A DNA stretch of 64,000 nt from Hyphomicrobiales bacterium (GTDB lineage Bacteria > Pseudomonadota > Alphaproteobacteria > Rhizobiales > CAJQND01). The notes beneath the pieces are model-generated. The model was not told the origin of the DNA. It saw nothing but the letters and a program-made list of their open reading frames with translations, and searched no databases. Position numbers and translations under genes: made by a program. The first letter of the stretch is position 1; each line of letters begins with the position of its first letter. The DNA lies in NCBI GenBank assembly GCA_028285595.1, contig JANQOW010000066.1, positions 350 through 64,349 of the forward strand, in the 5' to 3' direction. Shown piece by piece: positions 7,020-40,639 of the stretch.

Positions 7020-7316
7020 ATGGCCGAGCCTGACAGCGTCCTAGATGGCCGAGGCTCCCGGATCGCAGCCGGGCTTCTGTGCGCCGTTTGCATCGGCCTG
7101 ATCGTCTTCCTCAATTGGCACGTGATGTTTCCCCCGCCGGTCAAGAAAGGCGAGGACGATGCCAAGCTGAACCCGGAGTATGTCGCCTGCCGCGACGCGC
7201 GCCTGGTGACGGTTCAGAAGATGAAGGATGATGGCGTCATCAACGAGGCGCAGTTTACGCAGTTCTCTGCCCGCGCGGAGGAAACCTGCGCCGGCCAGTT
7301 TCCACCTGGCGGCTAG
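7020..7316 (+). CDS. small single-pass membrane protein, hypothetical
   Basis: 98 aa. TM helix AAGLLCAVCIGLIVFLNW. Starts 6 nt after the upstream stop. Its TAG stop shares the tetranucleotide CTAG with the stop of the convergent NRPS-like gene. Confidence 0.45.
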   Translation: MAEPDSVLDGRGSRIAAGLLCAVCIGLIVFLNWHVMFPPPVKKGEDDAKLNPEYVACRDARLVTVQKMKDDGVINEAQFTQFSARAEETCAGQFPPGG

Positions 7317-10024: not shown

Positions 10025-10146
10025 GGGCTCAAGTCTTAGATAGTCAAACCAGCCGCCCACGCTAACGCATCAGCGCGCACACGTGCGCACACGAAGTTTA
10101 ATGTTTTCGTGAGGCGCGAGTGCGCGCGACTTGAGACCGTTTCAAG

Positions 10147-24554: not shown

Positions 24555-24923
24555 ATGGACCTCAGATTTGTCACCCGCTCCGTCCACGCCTTTCTTGACT
24601 ATCCCGTGGCGCTCTCGCTGATGGCCGCACCGTTCATCCTCGGCCTCGGCGCCTCTCACCCTCTGGCGTTCTGGCTGGCGCTGGTCACCGGCGCAGCAGC
24701 CTTCGTGCTCACCGTCTTCACCGACCATCACCTCGGTCTTGTCCGCGTTTTGCCCTATGGGCTCCACCTGGCGGTCGACCTCGCCGTTGGCCTGGTGTTT
24801 GTGGCAGCGCCCTTCGTGCTTGGGTTCAGCGGGATTGATGCCTGGTACTACTGGCTCAACGGCGCCGCTGTGCTCACGGTGGTGAGCTTGCATAAGCCGG
24901 ACGTGGTACCGGCCCGGGCTTGA
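24555..24923 (+). CDS. small polytopic membrane protein (about 4 TM), hypothetical
   Basis: 122 aa, almost entirely hydrophobic helices (ALSLMAAPFILGL, WLALVTGAAAFVLTVF, LAVDLAVGLVFVAAPFVLGF). Confidence 0.5.
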   Translation: MDLRFVTRSVHAFLDYPVALSLMAAPFILGLGASHPLAFWLALVTGAAAFVLTVFTDHHLGLVRVLPYGLHLAVDLAVGLVFVAAPFVLGFSGIDAWYYWLNGAAVLTVVSLHKPDVVPARA

Positions 24924-24968: not shown

Positions 24969-25439
24969 TCACCGGGTGAGAGCTTTCTGCTGCGGCACCC
25001 AAACCGGTTCGAACGCGCCCTTCCAAAAGCCGCGTTTGGCCGCCTTGGCTCCGTTCATCTGGCCCCAATACCGCTGCGGCGCTCCGGCCTGCGGCACTGC
25101 CCAGCCGGTGTAGATCATGTTCTCCGCCAGATCGAAGCCTCCCGACGTACAGTGTGCAAACCCATCTGCGCCCAGCGTGCATCTGATGGCCGCGCCGGCG
25201 GAGAGGTCCATCAGAGAGGCGCGTGAGATCACACCGCAATCGCGCAGCTTGCCCCCCAGTTGGCAAGTGGTGCCTAAAGGCGGTGCGGAGATGTGGCGCA
25301 ACACAACGCGCGTCGACCCGAGCACAATCGTCATCCCATCTTCGACCGTGTATTCGCCCGATGCGGCCTTGATGGGGTCTGCCATCGCAGGCGCGGCCAT
25401 GAGGGCAACAGCCGCAATAAGAGGACTGAAGGATTTCAT
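24969..25439 (-). CDS. secreted thermonuclease (SNase)-like family protein
   Basis: Signal peptide MKSFSPLIAAVALMAAPAMA. SNase-like layout (VVLRHISAPP...C...AENMIYTGWA...AKAAKRGFW). Confidence 0.55.
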   Translation of the reverse strand: MKSFSPLIAAVALMAAPAMADPIKAASGEYTVEDGMTIVLGSTRVVLRHISAPPLGTTCQLGGKLRDCGVISRASLMDLSAGAAIRCTLGADGFAHCTSGGFDLAENMIYTGWAVPQAGAPQRYWGQMNGAKAAKRGFWKGAFEPVWVPQQKALTR

Positions 25440-25451
25440 CTCTCACCAAAT

Positions 25452-25489
25452 CAAAATGCCCGGGCTGGCAGTGAAGCCGGCCCGGGCAT
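25452..25489 (-). terminator. strong rho-independent terminator directly after the CNPC-repeat gene
   Basis: 14-bp stem ATGCCCGGGCTGGC (25456-25469) pairs with GCCGGCCCGGGCAT (25476-25489) across a 6-nt loop. On the minus strand the hairpin is followed by TTTTGATTTGG. Confidence 0.75.
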
Positions 25490-25518: not shown

Positions 25519-27594
25519 CTACTTCCGCACTTCTTCGGGCAGGAACAGCATGAAGTCGTTGGCCTCACCGCCCACATGGCAGTCGTGACAGAACTTCAGA
25601 CCCGCTGAGTTCTTGCCACCAGTCAGGCCAAACAGCTTGCCGCCCGGCATCACCATGGCATAGCGCCAGTTCGATGTTTCCGCGTTGAAGCCTCTGACCA
25701 TCTTCTCCATGATGAACAAGGGTCCGAGGGCCACTTTGCCATCGGGCTGGACGACGAAACTGGGTTTCGCCACCGTTGTTCCAATCGGCATCTTGCTGTC
25801 TTGCGCGTCATACTTGGTGTAGGCGCTGAGACCGACCTTGTTCACATGATTGGTCACGAACCGGCCACCATGAGTATCGGAGCGGTAGCCATGCTTGGAG
25901 ACCGTGTTGAAGCGCTTCCAGCGTGCTGTCGCCCAGTGGCCGGACTTGCCGTACGACTTGATCTGCGCCTTGCGGACACAGTCAGCCAGAGCGGCCAGTT
26001 CAGCAGCACTCACGTCAACCGCCGGTGCAGCACCGCAGGCCCCGCACGCTGCAGCGCAGGGATTGCACGCACCGCAGGCTTTCTTAGCCGCACAGGGATT
26101 GCAGGCACCGCAAGCGGCCTTGCACGGATTGCACTTCTTGGCGGCGCAGGGATTGCACGCACCGCAAGGATTGCACTTCTTGGCCGCGCACGGGTTGCAC
26201 GCGCCGCAAGCGGCCTTGCACGGATTGCAGGCACCGCAGGCGGACACCTTCTTAACCGCACAGGGGTTGCAGGCAATGCGCGGAACCACGCATTCCGTCA
26301 GAGCCGCTGCCGAAGCCGCGCCGCAAGGATTGCACGGATTGCAAGCACCGCATGCGCCACACGCCGCTTTACAGGGATTGCAAGCTGCGCAAGGGTTACA
26401 CTTCTTAGCCGCGCACGGGTTGCACGGGTTGCATGCGCCGCAAGCCGCCTTACACGGATTGCACTTCTTGGCAGCGCAAGGGTTGCACGCCGCACAGGCC
26501 GCTTTGCAAGGATTGCACTTGGCCGCTGCACAGGGATTGCAAGCCGCTTTGCACGGATTACACTTAGCTGCTGCACAAGGGTTGCAAGCTGCTTTGCACG
26601 GGTTGCACTTGGCTGCCGCGCAAGGATTGCAGGCCGCTTTACACGGGTTGCACTTGGCTGCCGCGCAAGGGTTGCAGGCCGCTTTGCAAGGATTGCACTT
26701 GGCCGCTGCACAGGGATTGCACGCCGCGCAAGCCGCTTTGCACGGATTGCACTTAGCAGCCGCGCAAGGGTTGCAGGACACGCGCACGCGCTTCACGGCA
26801 AAGCCGTTGCCCTGCTCCAGCGAAGAGCTCTTGCAAGGATTACACTTCTTGGCTTTGCAAGGATTGCACCCGCCACACTTTGCAGCGCAGGGGTTACATT
26901 TCTTGGCCGCACAAGGGTTGCACGCACCGCAAGCCGCTTTGCACGGGTTGCACTTAGCAGCCGCGCAAGGGTTGCAAGAGGTGCGCACGCGCTTCACGGC
27001 AAAGCCGTTGCCTTGCTCCAGCGAAGAGCTCTTGCACGGATTGCACTTCTTAGCCTTGCAAGGATTGCAACCGCCGCACTTTGCAGCGCACGGGTTACAT
27101 TTCTTGGCTGCACAAGGGTTACACGCACCGCAGGCCGCTTTGCACGGATTGCATTTCGCTGCCGCACATGGGTTGCAGGACACGCGCACGCGCTTCACGG
27201 CAAAGCCGTTGCCTTGCTCCAGCGATGAGCTCTTGCAAGGGTTACACTTCTTGGCTTTGCAAGGATTGCAAGCGCCGCAGGCGGCACCGCATGCTGCGCC
27301 GCACGGGTTACACTTCTTGGCAGCGCACGGGCTACATGCGCTTGCCGCACAGGGATTACATTTCTTAGCCGCAGAACAGGGGTTACAGGCGGCGACCCGA
27401 ATGCGCTTCTGCGCCGTCGGATTGCCCGGCTGTCCCGCACGCTTCTGGGCCACCGGGTTTTCACCCGAACGGTTGACAGCAGCCGGATTAGCCTTGCTGG
27501 CATTTGCCGGTCCGGAGACAGACAAGCCAATTGCAACGCCCAAGGCCACTGGCACAACGGCCACAGACGAGAGCAGTTCGTTTTTGCTGATCAT
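25519..27594 (-). CDS. secreted cysteine-repeat (about 45 x CNPC) protein with C-terminal cytochrome P460/c'-beta-like haem domain
   Basis: ATG 27594 preceded by GGGAGGA. Signal-peptide-like MISKNELLSSVAVVPVALGVAIGLSVSGPANA. Residues about 78-529 (track numbering) consist almost only of C/N/P/A/K/G. The C-terminal about 160 aa carry NWRYAMV...FCHDCH...DFMLFLP, the only CXXCH in the protein. Confidence 0.85.
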   Translation of the reverse strand: MISKNELLSSVAVVPVALGVAIGLSVSGPANASKANPAAVNRSGENPVAQKRAGQPGNPTAQKRIRVAACNPCSAAKKCNPCAASACSPCAAKKCNPCGAACGAACGACNPCKAKKCNPCKSSSLEQGNGFAVKRVRVSCNPCAAAKCNPCKAACGACNPCAAKKCNPCAAKCGGCNPCKAKKCNPCKSSSLEQGNGFAVKRVRTSCNPCAAAKCNPCKAACGACNPCAAKKCNPCAAKCGGCNPCKAKKCNPCKSSSLEQGNGFAVKRVRVSCNPCAAAKCNPCKAACAACNPCAAAKCNPCKAACNPCAAAKCNPCKAACNPCAAAKCNPCKAACNPCAAAKCNPCKAACNPCAAAKCNPCKAACAACNPCAAKKCNPCKAACGACNPCNPCAAKKCNPCAACNPCKAACGACGACNPCNPCGAASAAALTECVVPRIACNPCAVKKVSACGACNPCKAACGACNPCAAKKCNPCGACNPCAAKKCNPCKAACGACNPCAAKKACGACNPCAAACGACGAAPAVDVSAAELAALADCVRKAQIKSYGKSGHWATARWKRFNTVSKHGYRSDTHGGRFVTNHVNKVGLSAYTKYDAQDSKMPIGTTVAKPSFVVQPDGKVALGPLFIMEKMVRGFNAETSNWRYAMVMPGGKLFGLTGGKNSAGLKFCHDCHVGGEANDFMLFLPEEVRK
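26497..26721 (-). repeat. in-frame 45-bp tandem repeat x5 (15-aa unit CNPCAAAKCNPCKAA)
   Basis: Units start at 26497, 26542, 26587, 26632 and 26677. The first and last units are nearly identical; the middle units differ at synonymous sites. Confidence 0.85.
26700..27260 (-). repeat. in-frame 201-bp tandem repeat, about 2.7 copies (67-aa unit containing KSSSLEQGNGFAVKRVR plus six CNPC motifs)
   Basis: The phase marker GGTTGCA(G/A)GA recurs at 26769, 26970 and 27171. Two full units differ at 21 of 201 nt by hand alignment but at only one amino acid. Confidence 0.85.
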
Positions 27595-27795
27595 TAGGTT
27601 CCTCCCGAAAATGATCAATTGAGGTCAGTGTGCGAATGCACAAAGGAAAGTCGGTCAGGATGCGGACTATATGTACGCCGGACAACAGAGACGGCCTTCC
27701 GACGGACAACCTATCAAAGCCGTCGCGCACGTGTTTTCACATGAGGAGTTCAGTGGTTCACTAAAGCGTGAGGATTATAAACCGTCCGTAAACGG

Positions 27796-28659
27796 CTATT
27801 CGCGCACCAAACGGAAGCCAACCAAAATGTGCTTAATCGCCTTCGGCCGCCCGTGACGTGCGGCCGGGCGGCAGACGCCGCAGCCGCTGTCATCCCACGA
27901 TCCACCCTTGACCCGGAAGCGGTCTTTGCCCGTCGGCGTCGACGTCCATTCAAACACCTGACCCGCCGCATCCAGCAGACCGAAGGGGCTGGCACCCTTT
28001 GGAAACTTGCCCACGTTCACGGTGTCAAACGGACCCTTATCGTGACTGTTGAGCAGCTTGGCATCATAGGTGTTGCCCCAGGGGAAGTAGCGGCCATCGG
28101 TGCCGCGCGCGGCCTTCTCCCACTCCTTCTCCGTGGGCAGGCGCCACTTATGGCCGGTTTGTTTGGAGAGCCAGGCCGCGTAAGCCTGAACATCGTCGTG
28201 GGACACCATCACCACGGGATGTTCGGCGCGGCCTTCCGGGTAGGTGCCCTTTGACCAGGCGTGGCGCAGCGCCCGCTCATAGGGGTGAATGAGCTTGTAG
28301 GACGCCCAAACGCGCGGCTTCACCCGAGGGATCCGGTGGCCCGTGGCTTTCGTGAAGGCCCGATACTGAGCGTTCGTAATCGCCGACTTGGAAATGGCGA
28401 AGGCCGGCAGACTGATTGTCCGCCGCTTGTCCTCAAAGTCGTACCAGCGCTGCTTGCGGGTCACCGAATGGCCATAGGCTTTCTCGTCCAACCTGTAGGC
28501 AGCCTCACGTTCAGCTTGATCGGATCCGGTGATGAACGCGCCGGCAGGGATGGAGATCACCTCAGGCACCAGCTCTGGGGCGAGGGTGTCGGCACCCGCG
28601 TTGACCGCCAGCCAAATGAGGAGGGCAATGTTCACGGTTATAGATGAAATCAACCGCAC
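27796..28659 (-). CDS. secreted formylglycine-generating-enzyme (FGE/SUMF1/EgtB/PvdO) family protein
   Basis: Signal peptide MRLISSITVNIALLIWLAVNAGA. FGE-sulfatase-fold motifs (IPAGAFITGS, ITNAQYRAFTKATGH, HPVVMVSHDDVQAYAAWL, VFEWTS, VKGGSWDDSGCGVCRPAARHG, VGFRLV). Confidence 0.8.
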   Translation of the reverse strand: MRLISSITVNIALLIWLAVNAGADTLAPELVPEVISIPAGAFITGSDQAEREAAYRLDEKAYGHSVTRKQRWYDFEDKRRTISLPAFAISKSAITNAQYRAFTKATGHRIPRVKPRVWASYKLIHPYERALRHAWSKGTYPEGRAEHPVVMVSHDDVQAYAAWLSKQTGHKWRLPTEKEWEKAARGTDGRYFPWGNTYDAKLLNSHDKGPFDTVNVGKFPKGASPFGLLDAAGQVFEWTSTPTGKDRFRVKGGSWDDSGCGVCRPAARHGRPKAIKHILVGFRLVRE

Positions 28660-28680
28660 CAGATCAGCCGGCCCGGCGCA

Positions 28681-29400
28681 TCAAGCCGCCTTGCCGTGCG
28701 ACAGGATTGCCTGGCGCACCGCGGATATCTGCTTGGGCACATCGATCGACGTCTCCGACGTCACTTCAAGGTCGCGGTCTTCATAGACGTCACGGTCCGG
28801 GTGTTTCTCCTGCCACTCGGCCATCACTTGGTCGCGCTCGCGAATCAGCGCCTCGATCTGCGGGCGGAACAACACCATCATCGAGGAGACCCAGCGGTTG
28901 GTGGCAAGACAGGGATAGGTGTGGTCCATCTTGAACTTGCCAAGCAGTTCGATCGTGTCCTCTGCGGAGTAGTAGCTCTCATCGGTCACCCACCTGTTGG
29001 TGGTGAACAGACCAATGGGCTTGCCCGGCGCGTTCATGGAAATCGCTACGAAGTGGCACAGCGCATCCTTGCCCAGAGGCCGCTCCCCCTCGCCCTCATA
29101 GGGTGCCGGCTGGATACGCTTGGGCATGGCCTTGGCGCGCAGGAACGTATGGAAGTGGCCGTGCTCCTCGTCCCGGTGGGCATGGTAGTAATATTGTGAG
29201 CCATACTGGTCGTCGTAAATGTCGCCCGACGGATAATGGTCGAACTCATAAAACGTGCCCTGATTGGCAAGGCACTGCCCCACCACATTCGCGTTGGTCT
29301 TGCCTAAGAGGCGGTAGCATTCCTCAATCTCCGAACCGGCAGCGGCCATTTCTTCCAGCTGCTCACGAGGCAAATCGCTGAGTTTCACTTTAAGGCTCAT
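28681..29400 (-). CDS. His-rich hypothetical protein (239 aa, no signal peptide)
   Basis: ATG 29400 (MSLKVKLSDLPREQLEEM). Motif FDHYPSGDIYDD..GSQYYYHAHRDEEHGHFHTF suggests a metal site. Its stop is 21 nt from the FGE-like start. Family not recognised. Confidence 0.55.
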   Translation of the reverse strand: MSLKVKLSDLPREQLEEMAAAGSEIEECYRLLGKTNANVVGQCLANQGTFYEFDHYPSGDIYDDQYGSQYYYHAHRDEEHGHFHTFLRAKAMPKRIQPAPYEGEGERPLGKDALCHFVAISMNAPGKPIGLFTTNRWVTDESYYSAEDTIELLGKFKMDHTYPCLATNRWVSSMMVLFRPQIEALIRERDQVMAEWQEKHPDRDVYEDRDLEVTSETSIDVPKQISAVRQAILSHGKAA

Positions 29401-29633
29401 TTTGAGTTTAGGCGTCTTATACGTTGGATTTGCGGACCAATTTACTCCGCCGTGTGCGGACGAACAGCCCCTAGCGATCATATAACGCACAAACTTGCGT
29501 GATCGGCCCCCATGTTTTCGCCATTTTTGGCACAAATGTAGGGAAAACGACTGGCCGTTATGGTTAATAATAGCTTAACAAAAAAGTGGCACCACAGCGG
29601 CAAGGACGGTGGATTGGGAGGAAGGTCAAGCAA

Positions 29634-31280
29634 ATGATAGACAAACCGGTTGGACGCCCGCTTCGAACACTGGCCGCCACTTTGGCGCTGGCAACGCTGA
29701 CAGGTCTCGGCGCCTCCCCGGCGGTCGCGCAAAAGGGCGACAGCTTCTCCACCCGCAATGAAGTTTCTGCTCAGGTGGCCACCATCCTCAATTCTGAGGG
29801 CCGGCTGCCCATGCCCGTTCAAATCGTGCGCCCTGCCCTTACCAAGCACTACGTGGACAATGAGGGGCGTCTGTTCTGGGTCGGCTCGCCGCGGATGGAC
29901 CAGTTGATCGAGCGCCTGTCGAACGCCGCGCGCGACGGCCTCTTCACGCGGGATTACCCGATCGAATATCTCACCACACTCAAAGACAGCCTGCAGGCCG
30001 GCGAAGCGTTCACGGAAGCCTATGCGGAACTCGCCTTCAGTGCGTTCTTTCTGAAATATGCGTCCGATCTGAAAATCGGACGCTTTGTGCCGCGCAAGAT
30101 CGACCCTGAACTGTTTGTCTCCCGTAAGAAGCTGGACCTGGTGCCGGTTCTCGCCAAGCTCAACACCTATCCGTCGCTTGATGCCTTCTTCACCGATTGG
30201 GAACCCCAGAACTCTGAATATCGCACCTTGCGCAACGCGCTGCGCCAATACCAAGCCATCGTGGCTAAGGGTGGCTGGCAGGCGGTGGACCCCGGCGAGA
30301 CCTTAAAGCCCGGCATGATCGACCCACGGGTGGCGCAGGTGCGCGCGCGTCTGATGGCCTCTGGCGACCTCACCCAATCGGCAGATGATCCCAACCTCTA
30401 TGATGAGGGTCTGGAGATTGCCGTGCGCCAGTTCCAAACCGAACATGGGCTGGACAGCGACGGCGTTGTCGGCAAACAGAGCATCTTTGCCATGAACGTT
30501 TCGGCCGAAGAGCGGGTGCGCCAGATCATCGTAAACCTGGAGCGCTGGCGCTGGTTGCCGGAAGACTTGGGCGACCGCCACATTCTGGTGAACGTGGCCA
30601 GCTTTGAGCTGCGCCGCGTGGAGTATGGTTCGCTGCAGGAAGTCATTCGTGTTGTGGTGGGCAAACCCGGCACGCGCACGCCCGTGTTCTCCAACAAGAT
30701 CCGCTATCTGGAGCTGAACCCCACCTGGACCGTGCCGCGCTCCATTGCCACAAAAGAGATGCTGCCGAAGCTGCAAGCCAATCCTGGCTATCTCGGCAAC
30801 AATTTTGAGCTGCTCCAGGGCGGTCAGTCCATTCCGTTCGGGGCGGTCGACTGGGCCTCTGTCACGCGGTCCAACTTCGCGTACACCATTCGCCAGAAAC
30901 CAGGTCCGAAGAACGCGCTGGGCCGGGTCAAGTTCATGTTCCCCAACAAGCATGCGATCTATCTGCATGACACCCCGTCACGCAGCCTGTTCGGCCGCAC
31001 CACACGGGCCTTCTCGCACGGCTGCATCCGTGTCGGCCGCCCGCTCCATCTGGCCAATCAACTGCTTCAGGAGGCGCCGGGTAAATGGTCATTGAAGAAG
31101 ATCCAGACGGTTCTGGACTCTGCCAAGATCACTCGGGTCAATCTGCCCGAGCCCTTGCCGGTGCACCTCACCTATTCCACAGTGTTCCGTGGCCTCAACG
31201 GCGCCATCAACTTTCGGCCGGACATTTATGGCCGCGATAAACGGCTCTATCGTGCCCTCTTTGGCAAACATACCCCCTGA
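29634..31280 (+). CDS. L,D-transpeptidase family protein (YcbB-like: PG-binding domain + YkuD catalytic domain)
   Basis: ATG 29634. Signal peptide LRTLAATLALATLTGLGASPAVA. PG_binding_1-like LEIAVRQFQTEHGLDSDGVVG. Catalytic HDTP...SHGCIRV motif. Confidence 0.85.
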   Translation: MIDKPVGRPLRTLAATLALATLTGLGASPAVAQKGDSFSTRNEVSAQVATILNSEGRLPMPVQIVRPALTKHYVDNEGRLFWVGSPRMDQLIERLSNAARDGLFTRDYPIEYLTTLKDSLQAGEAFTEAYAELAFSAFFLKYASDLKIGRFVPRKIDPELFVSRKKLDLVPVLAKLNTYPSLDAFFTDWEPQNSEYRTLRNALRQYQAIVAKGGWQAVDPGETLKPGMIDPRVAQVRARLMASGDLTQSADDPNLYDEGLEIAVRQFQTEHGLDSDGVVGKQSIFAMNVSAEERVRQIIVNLERWRWLPEDLGDRHILVNVASFELRRVEYGSLQEVIRVVVGKPGTRTPVFSNKIRYLELNPTWTVPRSIATKEMLPKLQANPGYLGNNFELLQGGQSIPFGAVDWASVTRSNFAYTIRQKPGPKNALGRVKFMFPNKHAIYLHDTPSRSLFGRTTRAFSHGCIRVGRPLHLANQLLQEAPGKWSLKKIQTVLDSAKITRVNLPEPLPVHLTYSTVFRGLNGAINFRPDIYGRDKRLYRALFGKHTP

Positions 31281-31318
31281 GCCGACCAGGTCTTAAGGCG
31301 TGGTGCTCAGACTTCAAA

Positions 31319-32104
31319 TCAGCCGAACTGCTGATGGGCTCTCAGCTCGGACGAAGCTGGAACGAAAAGGCAATCAATCTGCCACAGCGCGCCATCCAGT
31401 GGCCGCCGGTGAAATTCGAGAATATCGTATAGTACAAAGCCTCGTTCTGACATGAACTCGATCATTTCATGGAAGATTGGCGCGCCTTTGTTCACGGCGA
31501 TCAATGAGAGCTCAAGCACAACAGCATTGACGCTTGATAGAACGTCTTGAGCCCCCTTCAGAACTTCAAGCTCATATCCTTGAACATCAATCTTCAGGAT
31601 ATCTACCGTCCGTCCGCCAACGAGTTTATCAAGGGCTTGCAAGGTTCGGTGTTCAATTTCCCTGTCGATAGCGCTTTGTTCAGCGTACACAGATGATCCG
31701 GTTTCCATCACGTGAAAATCAACGGCCTCGCCCGACTGCGCTCCCAGAAGCTCGCAAGCAACATCTCCATTGATTTCCTTGGCCACCTTTTCGAGGATCG
31801 GCAGTTTACTCTCATTAGGCTCAATCATGAGGACTGTGGCGGACGGCCATATGCCGTGGATCATCCGCGCCCAATCGCCCTCATAAGCCCCCACATCAAC
31901 CACAAACTCAGGAGAAAAGTTCAATTTGGCCAACGCGCTCAGGGCCTGCGCTTGGTCAGGCGCATTGGCGCGGCGGTGCGCTTCTAACAGAAATTGTTCC
32001 TCTGCCAGGGCGATACCAAGTTTAAGAATGAACTTTCGGATCGAAAATGGAAGTAAAGTGGTTAGCACCCTCACCAGTGTCGTTTTTAAGTTCTGGCTCG
32101 GCAT
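31319..32104 (-). CDS. FkbM-family SAM-dependent methyltransferase
   Basis: VVDVGAYEGDW ... ILKIDVQGYELEVLKG pattern of Methyltransf_21/FkbM. Lower GC than flanking genes. Confidence 0.7.
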   Translation of the reverse strand: MPSQNLKTTLVRVLTTLLPFSIRKFILKLGIALAEEQFLLEAHRRANAPDQAQALSALAKLNFSPEFVVDVGAYEGDWARMIHGIWPSATVLMIEPNESKLPILEKVAKEINGDVACELLGAQSGEAVDFHVMETGSSVYAEQSAIDREIEHRTLQALDKLVGGRTVDILKIDVQGYELEVLKGAQDVLSSVNAVVLELSLIAVNKGAPIFHEMIEFMSERGFVLYDILEFHRRPLDGALWQIDCLFVPASSELRAHQQFG

Positions 32105-32365
32105 GGTTTAGTCTCGAATAGAAGGGTTCAAAATACATGCCTTGTACTCAGCACGTGATTTCGATTTTGGCTTATGGATTTGGGATTGTTAATCCGAACC
32201 ACCGCACGCAATTAGGCGAACCCATATAACAAAGTCAACGCTAATTCCATTGCCGGTCAGAGACGGCCAAGTGGATGGATCAGCGGCGAGATTGTAAATG
32301 TTGCGGCGCGCCCGGCCACCGCCAGCATGCATGGAGTGCGACGGCGGTTTGTCCGCAAGGACGTC

Positions 32366-32404
32366 TCCAAACAAAAGAAAAGCGGCCTCGCGCGGCCGCT
32401 TTTC
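32366..32404 (-). terminator. strong rho-independent terminator after the VPLPA-CTERM protein gene
   Basis: GAAAAGCGGCC (32377-32387) pairs with GGCCGCTTTTC (32394-32404) across a 6-nt loop. On the minus strand the hairpin is followed by TTTTGTTTGG. Confidence 0.8.
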
Positions 32405-32426
32405 CATAGTGTCTTGTGATAAAGGA

Positions 32427-33197
32427 CTAGGCTTTACCGAGCTTCCGCTTGCGCCGCCAGCCCATGAGGCCCATCAGTCCAAGACCACCCGCCAAGAGCG
32501 GCAGAGCGGCCGGGACCGGAACTTCAGGCACATTGTTGCCGGGATCTGTGAAGTCCACCGTGATGGATTTCAACTTCCATTTGTCGTTGCCGTCGAAAGC
32601 GCCGAACATGTACATAGCGCTTTGAACGGTTCCGAAATTCGTGAACGGGTTATCGTCTTGCCTGAAGCTCAGATAGTCGTCCGTTCCGTAAGTCCCGTCG
32701 TCGTTGGCATCGAAGCCCCAACGGAAGTCGTCGCCGTTAGAAGGGTTGAACAACCCAAAAGACACCGATGACATTCCCACGTCTATATCATTGCCGTTGA
32801 AGGTGAAGGCAGCGGTGATGAAGTTGTCCCAGCCGTTACCGTCAACCTGATGATTATCGCCAGGACGTGTTGTAACGCCGGCACCGCCAACGTAACGCCC
32901 GATCCGAATATCACTGGCAGGGTTTAAAGTTTGGTTCGGTCCACCAATGGTGTAACCGTTAGGAATTGGATCAATGTTCCTATTGCCGCCGGTGGCATCC
33001 AAACTATTTGTGAACGCTCCAGCGGTGAACGTACCAGTAAGCCCGCCCACCGTCAGCGAGAACGATTGTGACAGTGAGTTATAGTTCGTCGAATCTTGTT
33101 GGCCTGGTGGTACCGAGAGATCGAAAGTGATAGGCACTGCGCCTACAGCACCAGCAGTCAGCACCAGAAAGGCGCCACTTAACACCATACTTTTCAT
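32427..33197 (-). CDS. secreted protein with C-terminal VPLPA-CTERM-type exosortase sorting signal
   Basis: Signal peptide MKSMVLSGAFLVLTAGAVGA. The C-terminus VPVPAALPLLAGGLGLMGLMGWRRKRK reads as motif, then TM helix, then a basic cluster. Confidence 0.8.
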   Translation of the reverse strand: MKSMVLSGAFLVLTAGAVGAVPITFDLSVPPGQQDSTNYNSLSQSFSLTVGGLTGTFTAGAFTNSLDATGGNRNIDPIPNGYTIGGPNQTLNPASDIRIGRYVGGAGVTTRPGDNHQVDGNGWDNFITAAFTFNGNDIDVGMSSVSFGLFNPSNGDDFRWGFDANDDGTYGTDDYLSFRQDDNPFTNFGTVQSAMYMFGAFDGNDKWKLKSITVDFTDPGNNVPEVPVPAALPLLAGGLGLMGLMGWRRKRKLGKA

Positions 33198-33603
33198 TGG
33201 CTTTCCCCAATAAATTACAACTCAGCTTCCCCGTTAATAAATTGTTAACGGAAAATAGAAAAGAACGCAAGTCTTGAAACACAATAAGTAGACAAAATGC
33301 GATAACCTTAAAATCACCTTTTTAGTGGCATATCATCCAATGCCCATCAGATTAACGATTGTGTTGCGCTCTCTGGAGTAGAAGATCACAGAATTTCACC
33401 CAAGTATGATGCACTTCATACTGCCGGATACATCGACACTCATTCAATAGATACTTAGATATCATAACATATAGCTATCGCATGAACTCTTAGGCGCCAT
33501 GATCATTCGTCGCCCAACTACGTTCCGTCCTTAACTTCGGGAAGTGTCGTGGCTGTTGTCGCCTATCCGCTTAATCTGGGGGCAATCCGTCAGCATGCTT
33601 GGG

Positions 33604-34233
33604 TCATCGCGCCGGCAACGATCCAGCGGCAGATTGAACCCATTCCTCCCGCGTCACCTCAAAGCCGGGACATTGGGTCCCGTACGCCCGGCGCAGGCCC
33701 ACGTCCCTCAATCCTGACTTCTTCAGAACGTTTTGCGAGGCAAAGTTTTCCGGGTCAGTGCAGGCCACAACCTCTTCAAGCGCCGTCATTTCAAAGGCAA
33801 AGCGCAACAGGCGCGTGCACACCTCCGTCGCAATCCCGCGGCCCCAGGCGGAGCGTTTCAGCATGTAACCGATCTCGATCTCGGCATCCGGATAGCGGTC
33901 ATCGACCAAAAGCGACCAATCCGTGTCATCTTCATCGAGAGGCAAGGGTAAGAGCACGCTCGTGCCATACTTTTCCGCCGTCGCCTTGTCTATCACGCAC
34001 CAAACGCCCAGCCGGCCGCCGGCACCTCTCGCCATTGCTGTTTCCAGTTCGCCGGCCACGTCTTCCGGCTTACTCAACCCGCACACATATTTGACAACTT
34101 CCGGGTCAAGAAACAGATCGCGGGCGATATCGATATCGTCCTCACAGAGCGGACGCAGGCGCAGGCGCTCGGTTTCCAGCACCAGAGCACTCGGCTCAAG
34201 CGGCTCAGGGCGTATGTCTGGCAAAGAGGGCAT
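33604..34233 (-). CDS. GNAT-family N-acetyltransferase (RimJ/RimL-like)
   Basis: LRLRPL..DD...... and RGIATE GNAT motif A region. ATG 34233 is preferred over the TTG at 34269. Confidence 0.7.
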   Translation of the reverse strand: MPSLPDIRPEPLEPSALVLETERLRLRPLCEDDIDIARDLFLDPEVVKYVCGLSKPEDVAGELETAMARGAGGRLGVWCVIDKATAEKYGTSVLLPLPLDEDDTDWSLLVDDRYPDAEIEIGYMLKRSAWGRGIATEVCTRLLRFAFEMTALEEVVACTDPENFASQNVLKKSGLRDVGLRRAYGTQCPGFEVTREEWVQSAAGSLPAR

Positions 34234-34305
34234 ACTAAAGCCGTTTATCACGGCCAAGCTTCTGGCCAATCATCATTTGCTGGGCGAAATCGATCAACAA
34301 AGCCT

Positions 34306-35961
34306 CTACCCGCTTAGCTTCGATAGCGTGGTGAAAGCCGATAGAGATTCCTTGCTCGACATGACCTCCACCACAACCGGTCCCTCATTATAGTCCATAG
34401 CCTGCTGCACCACATCATCCACATCCCCATCAGCGGCAACGCGGAACGCCTTGGCGCCGAAGCTCTCCGCCCACCTGCAGAAGTCCGGATTGGTGAGATC
34501 CGTCGCCGATACCCGCTTGGGGTAGAACTTCTCCTGATGCAGCCGGATGGTGCCGTAGGAGCCGTTGTTGGAGATCACGATCTTCGGCGCCGCGCCGATA
34601 TGCATCGCGGTGGCGATTTCCTGACCGGTCATCATGGTGCCTCCGTCTCCCACCACCACGATGGCCGGACGGTCCGGATTCAGATAACTCGCCGCGGTTG
34701 CCGCCGGCACCCCAATGCCCATGGCTCCGGCAATCGCGCCGATCAGCGTATTATCCGGCGTCATCTTCCAATACCGATGCACCCAGCTTGAGAAGTTGCC
34801 GGCATCGGTGAGCACAATGGCATCCTTTGGCGCAAGCCGGGCAAAGGCGTCCACCACACGGCCATAATCCACTCCATCCTCCGTCTCGCGCGGGACAAAG
34901 GCTGTAAAGCCGGAGATGAAGCTGTTCACCTCCTCTACCCACGACGCGCGGTTCTCTGGAACCTCGACAGCCGCTGCTGCCAGCATTTCAAGGAAGGCCA
35001 CCGGGTCGCCCGCCACGGCCACGTCGGTTCGGAAGTTCCGGCCAATGGTGTCAGCATCTTCATGCACGTGCACCAGCGTTTGCTCCGGCTCCGGTGATTT
35101 GGGCAGCTTGTAGTTTTGGGTGGCAACGTCCCCCAACCGCGTTCCCACAGCCACGATGAGATCAGTCTGGCTGAGAAGCGCAAGGTGATCGGCCGGCGTG
35201 CCGAAGCCCAGATGGCCCGCGTAGAGGGGTGAGAAGTTGTCGAAGAGATCCTGATGCTTCCACATGGCTGCCACCGGCACCTGGTGGGCCTCAGCGGCCG
35301 CCGCCAGAGCCTCCACCCCGCCGGCAGCTCTGAGCGATCCGCCCGCCATTAAAACCGGACGCTCCGCCTTTGCGATCAGGGCGGCCACCTCGGCCACCGT
35401 GGCCGCGTCGGGTGCCGCAGGCGCCGCAATCTCCAGTGCCCGCGGAGTGCCCGCAGCAGCATCCTTCAGCATGTCTTCAGGCACCGAAATCACCACCGGG
35501 CCGGGCGTTCCGCCCATGGCGGTCTCAAACGCCTCGGCCATCACGGGCACAATGTCCTGAGCTTGGGTGATCTCCCAAACGCCCTTGGCAATGGAACCGA
35601 AGAACTCCTGATAGTCGATCTCCTGCCAGGATCCCTTCCCGCGCTCATGGCGCGCCACCTGACCGATAATGTGGATGATGGGCGTTGCGTCCTGTTCGGC
35701 AACATGGAGGGCGATGGAACCATTGGTGGCACCGGGTCCGCGGCTCACCATGTAGACGGCGGGCTTGCGCGTCAGCTTGGCCTCGGCAACGGCCATGAAG
35801 CCCGCGCCGGATTCGTGCCGGCAGGGAATGGTCTCAATCTTGCCCGTGCCGTGCAGCGCATCAAGCAGCGCCAGGTAGCTCTCGCCGGGCACGCACCACA
35901 CGCGCTCCACCCCATAGGCCTCCAAGGCCTCTACAATCAAATCTGCTGCCCGCTTGGCCAT
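34306..35961 (-). CDS. thiamine-diphosphate-dependent enzyme, acetolactate-synthase-large-subunit-like
   Basis: 551 aa. N-terminal TPP-pyrimidine domain (AADLIVEALEAYGVERVWCVPGES) and C-terminal GDGG...NNGSYG TPP-binding motif. Confidence 0.8.
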   Translation of the reverse strand: MAKRAADLIVEALEAYGVERVWCVPGESYLALLDALHGTGKIETIPCRHESGAGFMAVAEAKLTRKPAVYMVSRGPGATNGSIALHVAEQDATPIIHIIGQVARHERGKGSWQEIDYQEFFGSIAKGVWEITQAQDIVPVMAEAFETAMGGTPGPVVISVPEDMLKDAAAGTPRALEIAAPAAPDAATVAEVAALIAKAERPVLMAGGSLRAAGGVEALAAAAEAHQVPVAAMWKHQDLFDNFSPLYAGHLGFGTPADHLALLSQTDLIVAVGTRLGDVATQNYKLPKSPEPEQTLVHVHEDADTIGRNFRTDVAVAGDPVAFLEMLAAAAVEVPENRASWVEEVNSFISGFTAFVPRETEDGVDYGRVVDAFARLAPKDAIVLTDAGNFSSWVHRYWKMTPDNTLIGAIAGAMGIGVPAATAASYLNPDRPAIVVVGDGGTMMTGQEIATAMHIGAAPKIVISNNGSYGTIRLHQEKFYPKRVSATDLTNPDFCRWAESFGAKAFRVAADGDVDDVVQQAMDYNEGPVVVEVMSSKESLSAFTTLSKLSG

Positions 35962-38263: not shown

Positions 38264-39694
38264 ATGCAGCAGAATGCCAGTTTTTTTGACGAGATGTTTC
38301 AGCCCGGGGAAGACGAACCGCGCGAGCCCTACCGGAACTACAAGGCCTGGATCAACCAGGAGAACCCGGCACACCTGAAACGCAAGGCCTCTGAGGCGGA
38401 AACCTTCTTCCGGCGCACCGGGATCACCTTCAACGTCTATGGAGAGGATGAGGCGACCGAGCGATTGATTCCGTTCGACATTGTGCCGCGCATCATCTCC
38501 GCGCGCGAGTGGTCCAGGCTCTCGCGCGGCATCGAACAGCGCGTGCGCGCCATCAACGCTTTCCTTCATGACATTTATCACCGCCAGGAGATCCTGCGCG
38601 CCGGCCGCGTCCCGGCCCGCCTGATCGCAGAGAACGAGGCCTTCCTGCCGCAGATGATCGGCGTCTCACCCCCCGGCGGTGTTTACACGCACGTGGTCGG
38701 CGTGGACTTAGTGCGCACCGGAGCTGATGAGTTCTATGTACTGGAGGACAACGCCCGCACCCCTTCCGGTGTCTCCTATATGCTGGAGAACCGGGAGACC
38801 ATGTTGCAGATGTTCCCAGAGCTCTTCAGCGCCAACAAGGTGGTGCCGGTGGGCAGCTATCCTCAGAACCTGCGCCGCTCGCTGGCGGCCAGCACGCCCG
38901 GAAAGCATGACGGCAAGCCGGTGATCGCCGTGCTCACCCCCGGCATTCACAACTCGGCCTATTTCGAGCACTCTTTCCTGGCCGATCAGATGGGCACCGA
39001 GCTGGTGGAAGGCCATGACCTTAAGCTGGTCGACGGGCGCATCGCCATGCGCACCGTGCGCGGCTACAAGCCTATCGACGTGCTCTATCGGCGGGTGGAT
39101 GATGACTTCCTCGATCCGCTCAACTTCAACCCGGACTCTGTCCTGGGCGTCCCCGGCATCATGGACGTCTACCGCGCCGGCAACATCACACTCGCCAACG
39201 CGCCGGGCACCGGGATCGCCGACGACAAGGCAATCTACTCCTATATGCCCGACATCGTGGAGTTCTACACCGGTGAGAAGGCTCTGCTGCAGAACGTGCC
39301 CACCTGGCGCTGCTCAGAAGCAGATTCACTCGCCTACGTGCAGGAGCATCTGTCCGAACTGGTGGTCAAGGAAGTGCACGGCTCCGGCGGCTATGGCATG
39401 CTGGTGGGCCCGGCCGCCAGCAAGAAGGAGCTCTCTTCCTTCGCCAAGAAGCTGGCAAAGGATCCTGCCAACTACATCGCCCAACCCACTTTGGCGCTCT
39501 CCACCGTGCCTATTCTCACGCAGAAGGGTCTGGCGCCGCGCCACGTGGACTTGCGGCCCTTTGTGCTGGTCTCGCCGGAGAACATCAAAATCACCCCGGG
39601 CGGCCTCACACGAGTTGCCCTGAAGCAAGGCTCCCTGGTGGTAAATTCCAGCCAAGGCGGCGGCACCAAAGACACTTGGGTGCTGGAGGAGTAG
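38264..39694 (+). CDS. circularly permuted type-2 ATP-grasp protein (DUF404/DUF407 type)
   Basis: 476 aa. Layout and motifs (YVLEDNARTPSGVSYMLENR, VVKEVHGSGGYGM) match the CP-ATP-grasp family that heads Anbu-type operons. Confidence 0.75.
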   Translation: MQQNASFFDEMFQPGEDEPREPYRNYKAWINQENPAHLKRKASEAETFFRRTGITFNVYGEDEATERLIPFDIVPRIISAREWSRLSRGIEQRVRAINAFLHDIYHRQEILRAGRVPARLIAENEAFLPQMIGVSPPGGVYTHVVGVDLVRTGADEFYVLEDNARTPSGVSYMLENRETMLQMFPELFSANKVVPVGSYPQNLRRSLAASTPGKHDGKPVIAVLTPGIHNSAYFEHSFLADQMGTELVEGHDLKLVDGRIAMRTVRGYKPIDVLYRRVDDDFLDPLNFNPDSVLGVPGIMDVYRAGNITLANAPGTGIADDKAIYSYMPDIVEFYTGEKALLQNVPTWRCSEADSLAYVQEHLSELVVKEVHGSGGYGMLVGPAASKKELSSFAKKLAKDPANYIAQPTLALSTVPILTQKGLAPRHVDLRPFVLVSPENIKITPGGLTRVALKQGSLVVNSSQGGGTKDTWVLEE

Positions 39695-39697
39695 CGC

Positions 39698-40639
39698 ATG
39701 CTGGGCAAAACCGCAGGCGGGCTCTTCTGGATGTTCCGCTATTTGGAGAGAAGCGAGAACACGGCCCGGCTGCTGGAGGCTGGCTTCCGTATGTCCCTGA
39801 CACGGTCAGCGGTCGGAGAAGACGAGTGGCGGTCCATTGTCAGTGCAGCAGGCGTGCGCAGCCAGTTCGAAGAGCGTCACAACAGCTATGCAACGCGGAA
39901 CGTAATCGACTTCCTGTTGCGCGATCCGGCCAACCCTTCGAGCGTCAAATCCTCTATTGAGGCGGCCCGTATCAACGCCCGCATGGTCCGCATTGCGCTC
40001 ACACGTGAGGTCTGGGAGGCCACCAATGAAAGCTGGATGACCCTCACCAAGCTGCTTGCCGACCCCATCCGCGAGCGCGACCTGCCGGCGGTGCTGGGCA
40101 CCATTCGCCAGCAGAGTGCCCTGGTGCGAGGCGCCCTGCATGGCACCATGCTGAGGAACGACATCTACGACTTCGCCCGCATCGGCACCTTTCTGGAACG
40201 GGGCGACAGCACGGCGCGCATCTTGGATGTGAAGTACTACGTTCTGCTGCCTTCCATTTCCTTTGTGGGCAGCTCGCTGGACAATGTGCAGTGGGAAACC
40301 ATCCTACGCTCCGTCTCCGCCCACCGCTCCTACCGCTGGCTCAATGGTGGAGAAATTACGCCAAAGGGCATTGCCAATTTCCTCATCCTGGATCGCCGCA
40401 TGCCGCGGTCCCTGGCCTTTTGCGCGGCCAAGCTGGCGGACAATCTGGGCTATCTGGAGGGCGACTATCAGACCCGCCTCCCCTGCCACGATCTGGCCGA
40501 ACACCTGCGCGACCGCCTGCGCAACAATACCATCGACATGATCATGGAAGACGGCCTGCATGAGTTTGTGCAAGGCTACATCCGAGACAATCTCGCCATC
40601 GGCAATGAGATCGAACGCAACTACCGGTTCACCGGATAG
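39698..40639 (+). CDS. alpha-E domain protein (DUF403)
   Basis: MLGKTAGGLFWMFRYLERSENTARLL is the classic alpha-E N-terminus. Starts 3 nt after the ATP-grasp stop. Confidence 0.75.
   Translation: MLGKTAGGLFWMFRYLERSENTARLLEAGFRMSLTRSAVGEDEWRSIVSAAGVRSQFEERHNSYATRNVIDFLLRDPANPSSVKSSIEAARINARMVRIALTREVWEATNESWMTLTKLLADPIRERDLPAVLGTIRQQSALVRGALHGTMLRNDIYDFARIGTFLERGDSTARILDVKYYVLLPSISFVGSSLDNVQWETILRSVSAHRSYRWLNGGEITPKGIANFLILDRRMPRSLAFCAAKLADNLGYLEGDYQTRLPCHDLAEHLRDRLRNNTIDMIMEDGLHEFVQGYIRDNLAIGNEIERNYRFTG

Follow-up and report, generated by a model that had tools for sequence, protein, structure and literature searches.

Organization of the Locus

A gene that joins a poly-cysteine tract to a haem domain was analyzed in a 64,000-nucleotide stretch of DNA (the window) from a Hyphomicrobiales bacterium (assembly GCA_028285595.1, contig JANQOW010000066.1, positions 350–64,349). 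The complete coding sequence is located on the minus strand at positions 25,519–27,594 of the window. It encodes a protein of 691 aa, followed by a stop codon, and consists of a predicted signal peptide, an N-P-C poly-cysteine tract and a cytochrome P460 domain (the tract-P460 protein). On the same strand, genes encoding an exported protein with the fold of the formylglycine-generating enzyme (FGE)-sulfatase family and a DUF6969 protein are found upstream, and a gene for a small secreted protein is found downstream.

The open reading frame (ORF) of the tract-P460 gene (25,519–27,618, minus strand) opens at a TTG codon, and the ATG at position 27,594 gives the protein of 691 aa. A Shine-Dalgarno sequence, GGGAGGA (27,600–27,606, minus strand), is located 6 nt 5' of this ATG, which is therefore the likely start rather than the TTG at 27,618. 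No sigma-70-like promoter was found for the gene. A heuristic reading of the N-terminus gave a Sec-type signal peptide (27,499–27,594, minus strand; aa 1–32; MISKNELLSSVAVVPVALGVAIGLSVSGPANA, cut before SK). Its core (aa 6–22) is hydrophobic, with Kyte–Doolittle means of about 1.9–2.35 in a 15-aa window, and is followed by an A-N-A site; no twin-arginine motif was found in it. A similar hydrophobic N-terminus, K-x-x-LLS(S/T), is present in the homologues. These features are in line with an earlier note, made from the letters of the window alone, in which the protein was described as secreted; on this reading, the protein is predicted to be Sec-exported and periplasmic.

The same note had assigned the gene its own terminator. 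A perfect 14-bp GC-rich hairpin was indeed found at 25,456–25,489 (minus strand), beginning 29 nt past the stop codon and followed by the T-rich tail TTTTGATTTGG on the minus strand. This element between the tract-P460 gene and the next gene is intrinsic-terminator-like, and read-through is possible because the ATG of the next gene (25,439) lies only about 17 nt beyond the stem. An HDV-like ribozyme match inside the coding repeat (26,396–26,477, minus strand) was rejected, since Rfam gave it only 22.6 bits (gathering score 44; E = 0.53) and it is almost certainly a chance match. Plus-strand ORFs over the repeat, 25,801–27,228 (475 aa) and 25,895–27,622 (575 aa), were likewise set aside as by-products of the repeat composition.

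Anatomy of the Cysteine Tract

Direct counting in the whole 691-aa protein gave 111 Cys, 64 CXXC and 45 CNPC motifs (overlapping count), which agrees with the hand count of about 45 CNPC and more than 100 Cys made earlier. Almost all of the cysteines (106/111) fall in a tract of 444 aa (aa 70–513; 24% Cys), close to the previously estimated 450 residues, and 391 of the 444 residues (88%) are A, C, K, N, P or G. The tract is strongly cationic (+64/−4), with 64 Lys/Arg against 106 Cys.

The following elements are all located on the minus strand. A pre-tract segment (27,388–27,498; aa 33–69) contains degenerate NP(A/V/T)A units and has KRIRVAAC at its end. It is followed by Cys tract I (26,302–27,387; aa 70–431), in which the CNPC motifs are spaced by 2–4 A/K/G residues and in which three super-repeats of 67 aa are found (26,632–27,234; aa 121–321). 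Each super-repeat is opened by the linker KSSSLEQGNGFAVKRVR; its three copies, starting at aa 121, 188 and 255, are exact, as had been noticed at first reading. The three internal linkers end like the pre-tract segment (KRVRV/TSC vs. KRIRVAAC). In both haem families described below, tracts start with a short motif, hydrophobic-x-hydrophobic-A-(A/S)-C, and the window protein repeats this motif at each linker end. A single copy of the motif C-V-V-P-R-I (26,275–26,292; aa 435–440) separates tract I from Cys tract II (26,035–26,277; aa 440–520); a splitting motif of the form C-x-[VI]-P-R-[LI] was found once per tract in 64 of 75 tracts.

The residue after CNPC in the window tract is A in 21 cases, K in 18, G in 3, N in 2 and S in 1, and never R. 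The Cys before N-P-C, which gives CNPC, is common but not universal among the relatives, and the conserved unit of the tract is N-P-C followed by small residues and Lys, not CXXC. Several other dialects were observed. The tract of locus L030 contains 73 Cys, nearly all in CGAC/CGACGA (Gly at every third residue), without CNPC; L071 has PCAPC/PCSPC, L007 and L048 have (NPC)n, and protein P0113 has LNPCAAKT with one Cys per unit. The selected chemistry appears to be that of spaced Cys among small residues rather than one fixed motif.

The tract, the C-x-V-P-R motif and a Cys in helix 1 of the haem domain (Cys539 in the window protein) occur together in 138 proteins, and none of the three was found in 34 tract-less relatives. 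This co-occurrence suggests docking of the tract on the haem domain, for which a Cys435–Cys539 link is possible. The number of cysteines in the tract proteins is even in 75 and odd in 68 cases (p = 0.62). The absence of an even-number bias argues against a fixed, fully paired disulfide scaffold, and an obligate scaffold of this kind was considered unsupported.

Selection on the Repeat and Confirmation of the Gene

The repeat is not a set of identical duplicates. The 45 CNPC motifs are written with 19 distinct 12-mers. A comparison of super-repeats 1 and 2 shows 21 differences in 201 nt, corresponding to 18 synonymous codons and 1 non-synonymous codon. Purifying selection therefore acts on the super-repeat peptide.

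A scan of species-representative genomes revealed 497 relatives of the haem domain, among which 80 loci were retrieved. The ORF start falls inside the locus in 71 of them. Of these 71, 68 carry an in-frame Cys tract ahead of the haem domain, far more than chance would give, and all 71 have exactly one CXXCH. The earlier note had named a frameshifted or missing repeat in homologues as a sign of a decaying gene, and the in-frame tracts speak against such decay. The 68 tracts contain 10–107 Cys (median 47.5) and 0–52 CNPC motifs; the window tract is near the top of this range, and only one locus has more Cys.

A short-read (Logan) contig of an independent assembly (L087, run SRR20820731) is 100% identical to positions 27,196–35,400 of the window (8.2 kb), and its end coincides exactly with the first super-repeat. 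This independently confirms the 5' part of the gene, and the number of super-repeats (three) comes from the window assembly only. The same contig illustrates how tract genes are truncated in metagenome assemblies. The Shine-Dalgarno site, the signal peptide, the synonymous bias of the repeats and the in-frame tract in the relatives all indicate that the tract-P460 gene is real and translated.

The Haem Domain Is Predicted to Be a Cytochrome P460

The C-terminal 166 aa of the protein (25,522–26,019, minus strand; aa 526–691) are ordinary globular sequence with the segments NWRYAMV, KFCHDCH and DFMLFLP. Helix 1 of this domain holds a lone cysteine, Cys539, which is specific to tract-bearing members. 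The c-haem attachment motif CHDCH with the proximal His (25,576–25,590, minus strand; aa 669–673) is the sole CXXCH of the protein. As stated in the earlier note, the repeats are thus not haem sites. The Cys and His residues of CXXCH are invariant in the broad alignment A3, which takes in tract-less relatives. One homologue at locus L004 (P0002), 71% identical, has FSKECRV in place of FCHDCHV and has lost the CXXCH haem site; its sequence suggests either a haem-less variant or a pseudogene.

The assignment of this domain to the cytochrome P460 family, first made by eye, was examined using Pfam, structure modeling and profile searches. In the Pfam check on PF16694 that had been proposed, the haem domain obtained 23.2 bits (E = 9.5e-5; profile positions 22–122 of 125), which is below the cut-off of 27. 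The broader profile A3 gave significant matches in the PDB, with E values down to 2e-7. No PF16694 match was obtained with the whole 691-aa protein, probably due to compositional bias, and most homologues of the haem domain have a precomputed PF16694 match. Modeling of the last 171 aa using AlphaFold2 led to a confident model with a pLDDT of 83.6 and a pTM of 0.83. In a Foldseek search of this model against the Protein Data Bank (PDB), ranks 1–5 were cytochrome P460 (M. capsulatus, N. europaea) or cytochrome c'-beta (T. thermophilus) with a probability of 1.00, and rank 6 had a probability of 0.11.

Single-sequence and narrow-profile searches of the haem domain against the PDB gave nothing useful, or E = 1.1. 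Profile A3 matched TtCP-beta (7ead, 2.3e-7), NeCP-beta (7s5o, 2.6e-7), McP460 (9hrk/6hiu, about 5e-5), NeP460 (2je2/8gar, 2e-3) and 6hih (0.02), and no family other than P460/c'-beta was found in the PDB below E = 1. Both the predicted fold and the profile therefore place the C-terminal domain in the family proposed in the earlier note and indicate a true cytochrome P460.

Two residues allowed the two branches of the family to be separated. The cross-link position and the distal proton-relay carboxylate, both present in NH2OH-oxidising P460s, are defined in Table 2 of PMC11928373. Lys610 of the window protein (in AKPSF; 25,765–25,767, minus strand) is near-invariant (and invariant in alignment A1) and is the predicted haem cross-linking lysine. 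Its column contains Lys78 in McP460, Lys70 in NeP460 (K96 in the precursor), Met in NeCP-beta and Phe61 in TtCP-beta. Glu630 (in MEKM; 25,705–25,707, minus strand), also near-invariant and likewise invariant in A1, is the predicted distal proton-relay carboxylate, and its column contains Glu96 in NeP460 and Asp102 in McP460. As both columns match P460, the domain was assigned by its residues to P460 proper and not to the gas-binding c'-beta proteins; the covalent Lys bond and catalysis are predicted. The distal capping residue was placed only to within the region R578–V580. Within this known family, the window haem domain is divergent.

Spread of the Family and Errors in Gene Calling

An exhaustive search for the haem-domain family gave 398 clusters at 50% identity (E ≤ 1e-10). 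As judged from these relatives, the tract-P460 family covers hundreds of species, mostly marine Alphaproteobacteria. The carriers belong to the orders Hyphomicrobiales, Rhodospirillales, Sneathiellales and Kiloniellales and include cultured organisms such as Hoeflea poritis E7-10, Nitratireductor sp. XY-223, Aestuariispira insulae CECT 8488 and Pelagibius sp. The taxonomic spread of the repeat, which the earlier note had proposed to map, is thus that of a large conserved family. The closest relative of the window locus, L003, is fully syntenic with it and has a haem domain that is 90% identical. Its tract contains 26 CNPC motifs and one linker versus three, so that tract length shifts quickly.

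Most database relatives of the haem domain are proteins of 108–166 aa without a signal peptide that start exactly at the end of the tract. Two complete or near-complete genomes were inspected in this respect. The real ORFs at L001 (4930–6480; 516 aa) and L002 (5107–6447; 446 aa) both contain a signal peptide, a tract and a P460 domain. The public gene calls at these loci are stubs of 159 aa (L001) and 148 aa (L002), plus spurious opposite-strand ORFs of 299 and 271 aa, respectively. This combination of a stub and a spurious opposite-strand ORF is a systematic annotation error for the tract-P460 family, and the window ORFs of 475 and 575 aa on the plus strand are equivalents of these spurious ORFs. 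Full-length gene calls exist in the databases and are unnamed or labelled as hypothetical. NCBIfam contains no model of the tract-P460 protein, and none of DUF6969, the 156-aa neighbour or the second tract family described below.

The wider subfamily also contains tract-less members of 210–240 aa with plain signal peptides; therefore, the tract was added to a pre-existing secreted P460. In two P460-type proteins (P0155 and P0162), a LysM (peptidoglycan-binding) domain is inserted in the tract region, which hints that some members could be cell-wall anchored. At locus L009, about 450 aa upstream of the P460 domain contain no Cys tract but a TIR-like N-terminus, a transmembrane segment and helical repeats, and C-K-I-P-R-L is kept; this may be a different fusion or an over-extended stop-to-stop ORF.

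The Same Tract on a Second Haem Fold

A search of the databases with the tract revealed 441 proteins, all unnamed or hypothetical. Exactly one CXXCH was found in 118 of the best 120. About 16 of these best 120 belong to a different family, which consists of a signal peptide, a tract, a mono-haem cytochrome c domain of the SoxA/TsdA type and a second, C-terminal tract. With 43.3 bits, the haem domain of P0050 passes the Pfam threshold of PF21342. Other examples are the proteins P0049, P0054, P0113, P0137, P0152 and P0156, and the loci of this family are L083–L086 and L088–L090. In this family, a conserved Cys in '…EMVNFCM…' is located about 39 residues past the His of CXXCH; it may be the axial haem ligand, as in SoxA/TsdA, but the PDB alignments are weak there. 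At L086 (9260–10657), a SoxA/TsdA-type tract gene is followed first by a gene for a 324-aa homologue of the copper chaperone Cox11/CtaG, whose N-terminal extension is long and free of Cys, and next by a gene for a class-I cytochrome c.

The repeat is thus also found on a second, unrelated haem fold. As far as can be read from these sequences, N-P-C tracts are always joined to exactly one c-haem domain of a ligand-reactive kind, either P460 or SoxA/TsdA type.

Neighboring Genes

Directly upstream, at 27,796–28,659 (minus strand), the window contains a gene for an exported protein of 287 aa (from the first start) that matches the full-length profile of the FGE-sulfatase fold (PF03781, 149.3 bits). 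The sequence GGSWDDxGCG(V/I)CR, with a CxxC pair, is kept in 39/39 neighbour copies. The active-site loop aligns only with ToxD, SUMF2, PorK/GldK and EgtB, which all lack the Cys pair, and no alignment with bona fide FGEs (Cx4C) was obtained at the CxxC loop. This neighbour is best described as a predicted periplasmic FGE-fold CxxC protein. Its identification as an orthologue of NirV or FGE was rejected, as a plasmid tblastn search gave only generically named relatives of about 30% identity and the loop does not align with real FGEs.

The next gene upstream (28,681–29,400, minus strand) encodes a DUF6969 protein of 239 aa from the ATG of MSLKV (PF22308, 270 bits) without a signal peptide. Residues H55, H73, H75, H80, H82, H84, H116 and C164 are invariant. 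The confident AlphaFold2 model of this protein has a pLDDT of 89.6 and a pTM of 0.90, and neither a PDB sequence match nor a Foldseek match (best E 0.67) was found; the fold thus gave no clue to function, and it may be a new metal-binding fold. More than 4,600 clusters of DUF6969 are present in the databases.

These two genes are the only strongly conserved neighbours of the P460-type loci: with adequate flanks, DUF6969 was found in 42/56 and the FGE-fold gene in 26/56 loci. One or both also adjoin the tract gene in 4/6 SoxA/TsdA-type loci, namely both at L084, the FGE-fold gene at L088 and L089, and DUF6969 at L090; the FGE-fold protein of L089 is 68% identical to the copy in the window. Thus, the partners follow the tract and not the haem fold.

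A gene for a secreted Cys-containing protein of 156 aa (24,969–25,439, minus strand) comes next after the hairpin on the downstream side. In about 25 related loci it is found at this same downstream position and on the same strand (tblastn offsets between +575 and +680), and it may be a fourth member of the cluster. No match for this protein was found in Pfam, NCBIfam or the PDB, and the proposal that it is thermonuclease-like found no support in these searches.

The rest of the 64-kb window is housekeeping, and no nitrogen-cycle, sulfur-oxidation or copper genes were found in it. The window also contains an SPW-repeat membrane protein adjoining the cluster (24,555–24,923, plus strand), a stand-alone NRPS-like A-T-TE protein of 915 aa (7313–10,060, minus strand), a circularly permuted ATP-grasp and Alpha-E pair (38,264–40,639, plus strand) and an exosortase EpsH/DUF3485 fusion (60,700–62,304, plus strand).

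Possible Function of the Tract

The earlier note had suggested a thiophilic-metal sponge, a poly-dithiol/disulfide redox buffer or an NO/hydroxylamine-linked thiol sink as possible roles, and all three are kept here as candidates. The reading that we favor, with a probability of about 0.4, is that the tract serves as a thiol/disulfide pool of high capacity, tethered to the catalytic haem and chemically coupled to it. It is preferred because the tracts always accompany one ligand-reactive haem from two unrelated folds; the haems of the P460 and SoxA/TsdA types both react with ligands and do not simply transfer electrons. In SoxXA and TsdA, a sulfur nucleophile, which may be a carrier-protein cysteine, is coupled oxidatively, and typical CXXC disulfides have potentials of about −120 to −270 mV. 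The potentials of P460 haems are −340 to about −400 mV, and in P460 chemistry a nucleophile attacks the haem {FeNO}6 intermediate (PMC11928373). As the P460 potentials lie below those of CXXC disulfides, electron flow from the haem to the tract disulfides is feasible. The partner genes that accompany the tract on both haem folds, its co-occurrence with the helix-1 Cys and the Cys counts without an even-number bias also speak for this reading.

According to this scheme, the haem would oxidise a small substrate, which in the P460 case could be hydroxylamine or NO. The tract disulfides might serve as a built-in electron sink that is thermodynamically reachable from about −340 to −400 mV. The tract thiolates might also act as nucleophiles and capture the haem-bound electrophile, the {FeNO}6 state, to give S-nitrosothiols. 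The FGE-fold CxxC protein could recharge or process the tract, which is a guess, and tract length would set the capacity, which would explain the large variation of length among the relatives.

Several points weigh against the thiol/disulfide pool. The genes of the window give no link to nitrogen or sulfur metabolism. The CXXC dithiol is not universal, as the 8-residue unit of some SoxA/TsdA-type members (LNPCAAKT) contains a single Cys. For thiosulfate oxidation by SoxA/TsdA-type members, an electron sink is thermodynamically implausible; these proteins would call for electron flow in the opposite direction or for the nucleophile role. A thiol pool that is used stoichiometrically must also be recharged by some route. 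Finally, a Lys-rich composition with 24% Cys fits a metallothionein-like metal binder equally well.

A wider form of this idea, which we consider a rather long shot, is that haem enzymes with N-P-C tracts form a new 'self-carrier' class, in which a ligand-reactive c-haem acts on dozens of low-pKa Cys in cis. The haem could ligate NO+ (from hydroxylamine or NO) onto Cys as S-nitrosothiol, or sulfane sulfur or thiosulfate as persulfide or thiosulfonate. In another form, the Cys residues would be a rechargeable disulfide relay wiring low-potential haem chemistry to the periplasmic Dsb/quinone system. The FGE-fold CxxC oxidoreductase and DUF6969 would then be maturation or recharging factors. If true, this would be an unrecognised route by which marine heterotrophs handle hydroxylamine, NO or reactive sulfur.

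The main alternative, which is possible though it seems doubtful to us, is that the tract is metallothionein-like and acts in the periplasm as a sponge or store of thiophilic metal, Cu(I) being the likeliest. Thiolate clusters would bind the metal, lysines would neutralise the charge, the haem domain would gate loading or release, for example by oxidising or nitrosating thiolates, and the FGE-fold CxxC protein and DUF6969 would handle the metal. The cysteine content of the tract and its ratio of 64 Lys/Arg to 106 Cys are metallothionein-like, the hypervariable tract length is what a capacity function would predict, and Cys counts without an even-number bias fit this picture too. The FGE fold belongs to a family of enzymes that depend on Cu(I), and the neighbour with this fold keeps its Cys pair in the equivalent loop in all 39 copies; the invariant His cluster of DUF6969 points the same way. 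A weak cupredoxin-like secreted protein recurs in 13 loci, but this match has E = 0.019, and the Cox11/CtaG copper chaperone adjoins one SoxA/TsdA-type locus only. Moreover, Pfam and NCBIfam revealed no homology to metallothionein, Csp or metal-chaperone families, no copper-resistance or copper-transport genes are present in the window, and the obligatory single ligand-reactive haem domain is left unexplained. Known periplasmic copper binders prefer Met and His over Cys, which also counts against a Cys-based store.

The position of the FGE-fold gene next to tract genes of both haem families raises another explanation, that the tract is a substrate of this enzyme, selected Cys being oxidised to formylglycine or otherwise cross-linked, so that the Lys/Ala-rich tract would form a covalently cross-linked or surface-anchored scaffold that positions the haem domain in the envelope. 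Pro is found at +2 of Cys in every CNPC, Lys at +4 in 18/45, and C-N-P-C-K resembles the FGE motif C-x-P-x-R; pre-tract and linker motifs of the form …KR(I/V)RV(A/S)C recur like recognition elements, and the LysM variants would suit an envelope scaffold. However, bona fide FGEs require Arg at +4, which is absent from all 45 CNPC motifs, and the lone C-V-V-P-R has Pro at +3 and not at +2. The loop of the neighbour is CxxC rather than Cx4C, and its only alignments are with fold members that are non-catalytic or not FGEs. Where the flanks are adequate, about half of the loci have no FGE-like gene within reach (26/56 have one), and CGAC, PCAPC and single-Cys-per-unit variants still occur. We therefore regard a substrate role as improbable. 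That the tract is a tolerated low-complexity expansion without function, an artefact of assembly or part of a decaying gene, with the P460 domain alone being of importance, is essentially excluded. The frequent annotation of a 108–166-aa stub only, the breaks of short-read assemblies inside the tract, the tract-less sister proteins and a super-repeat copy number known from one assembly could suggest it. But the stubs lack the signal peptide that a c-type cytochrome needs, the tract is in frame in 68/71 loci of several alphaproteobacterial orders, and the repeat differences are strongly biased to synonymous changes. In addition, conservation extends to the C-x-V-P-R motif within the tract and to the helix-1 Cys that co-evolves with it, and the same type of tract was recruited to a second haem fold.

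Significance

The earlier note knew of no characterized protein with this architecture, and our literature searches gave no description of one either. No paper was found on DUF6969, nor on NPCAAK or CNPCNPC as a peptide, and the matches to CNPC were unrelated acronyms. Searches for a cysteine-rich cytochrome P460 gave none, and nothing relevant was found for metallothionein, periplasm or formylglycine. Thus, neither the architecture nor its return on a second haem fold nor the conserved trio of genes appears to have been described.

Outside nitrifiers and methanotrophs, cytochrome P460 has, to our knowledge, neither a known physiological role nor known electron partners. A P460 with both catalytic hallmarks, more than 100 built-in Cys and two partner genes in cultured marine Alphaproteobacteria makes the question of its role directly testable. 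The tract shared by P460 and SoxA/TsdA-type haems points to a general, undescribed coupling of a catalytic haem to Cys chemistry or metal–thiolate storage. Surveys of P460 and nitrogen-cycle genes miscount and mis-describe the tract proteins, because the genes are split in complete genomes and broken in short-read assemblies. DUF6969, with more than 4,600 clusters, an invariant His cluster and a confident model without a solved structural relative, is a worthwhile target itself.

Comparison with Known Systems

Like metallothioneins and copper storage proteins (SmtA, MymT, Csp1), the window tract has a very high Cys content with interspersed Lys/Ala/Gly and no aromatic residues. Csp1 is extracytoplasmic, and Csp proteins are folded four-helix bundles, not low-complexity tracts. 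Unlike metallothioneins, the window tract is about ten times longer, consists of regular N-P-C units and is always fused to a haem domain; no metallothionein or Csp relationship of the whole protein was found in the Pfam and NCBIfam searches.

In the SoxXA–SoxY system, the action of a haem on a carrier cysteine is established, and the second tract-bearing family has a haem domain of the type found in SoxA and TsdA. The window protein differs in having a P460 domain and dozens of Cys in cis, whereas SoxY has one Cys on a separate protein, and no sox genes are present nearby in the window. Compared with FGE and its substrates (C-x-P-x-R), the upstream neighbour has the FGE-sulfatase fold, and the tract Cys have Pro at +2 and often Lys at +4; the differences are CxxC in place of Cx4C in the neighbour and the absence of Arg at +4 in the tract.

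The cytochromes c'-beta (McCP-beta, TtCP-beta, NeCP-beta) share the fold and the haem attachment with the window domain and gave its best profile matches. However, they have Phe or Met where the window protein has Lys, and where it has Glu, Gly82 is found in two Phe-type proteins and Ala109 is listed for NeCP-beta.

The closest likeness in function-related residues is to cytochrome P460 (NeP460, McP460; PF16694), with which the window protein shares the beta-sheet-rich fold (Foldseek E 3e-5; TM 0.53/0.62), the single C-terminal CXXCH, the Lys in the cross-link column, the carboxylate in the distal column and the periplasmic location. At the same time, its haem domain is only about 17–18% identical to these proteins and below the Pfam gathering score. 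The 2025 review of the P460 family mentions no fused or Cys-rich member (PMC11928373). The matched solved P460/c'-beta chains are 135–196 aa long, whereas the window protein has an N-terminal extension of 520 aa with 108 Cys. In addition, its family is found in marine heterotrophic Alphaproteobacteria and not in nitrifiers or methanotrophs, and FGE-fold and DUF6969 genes adjoin it.

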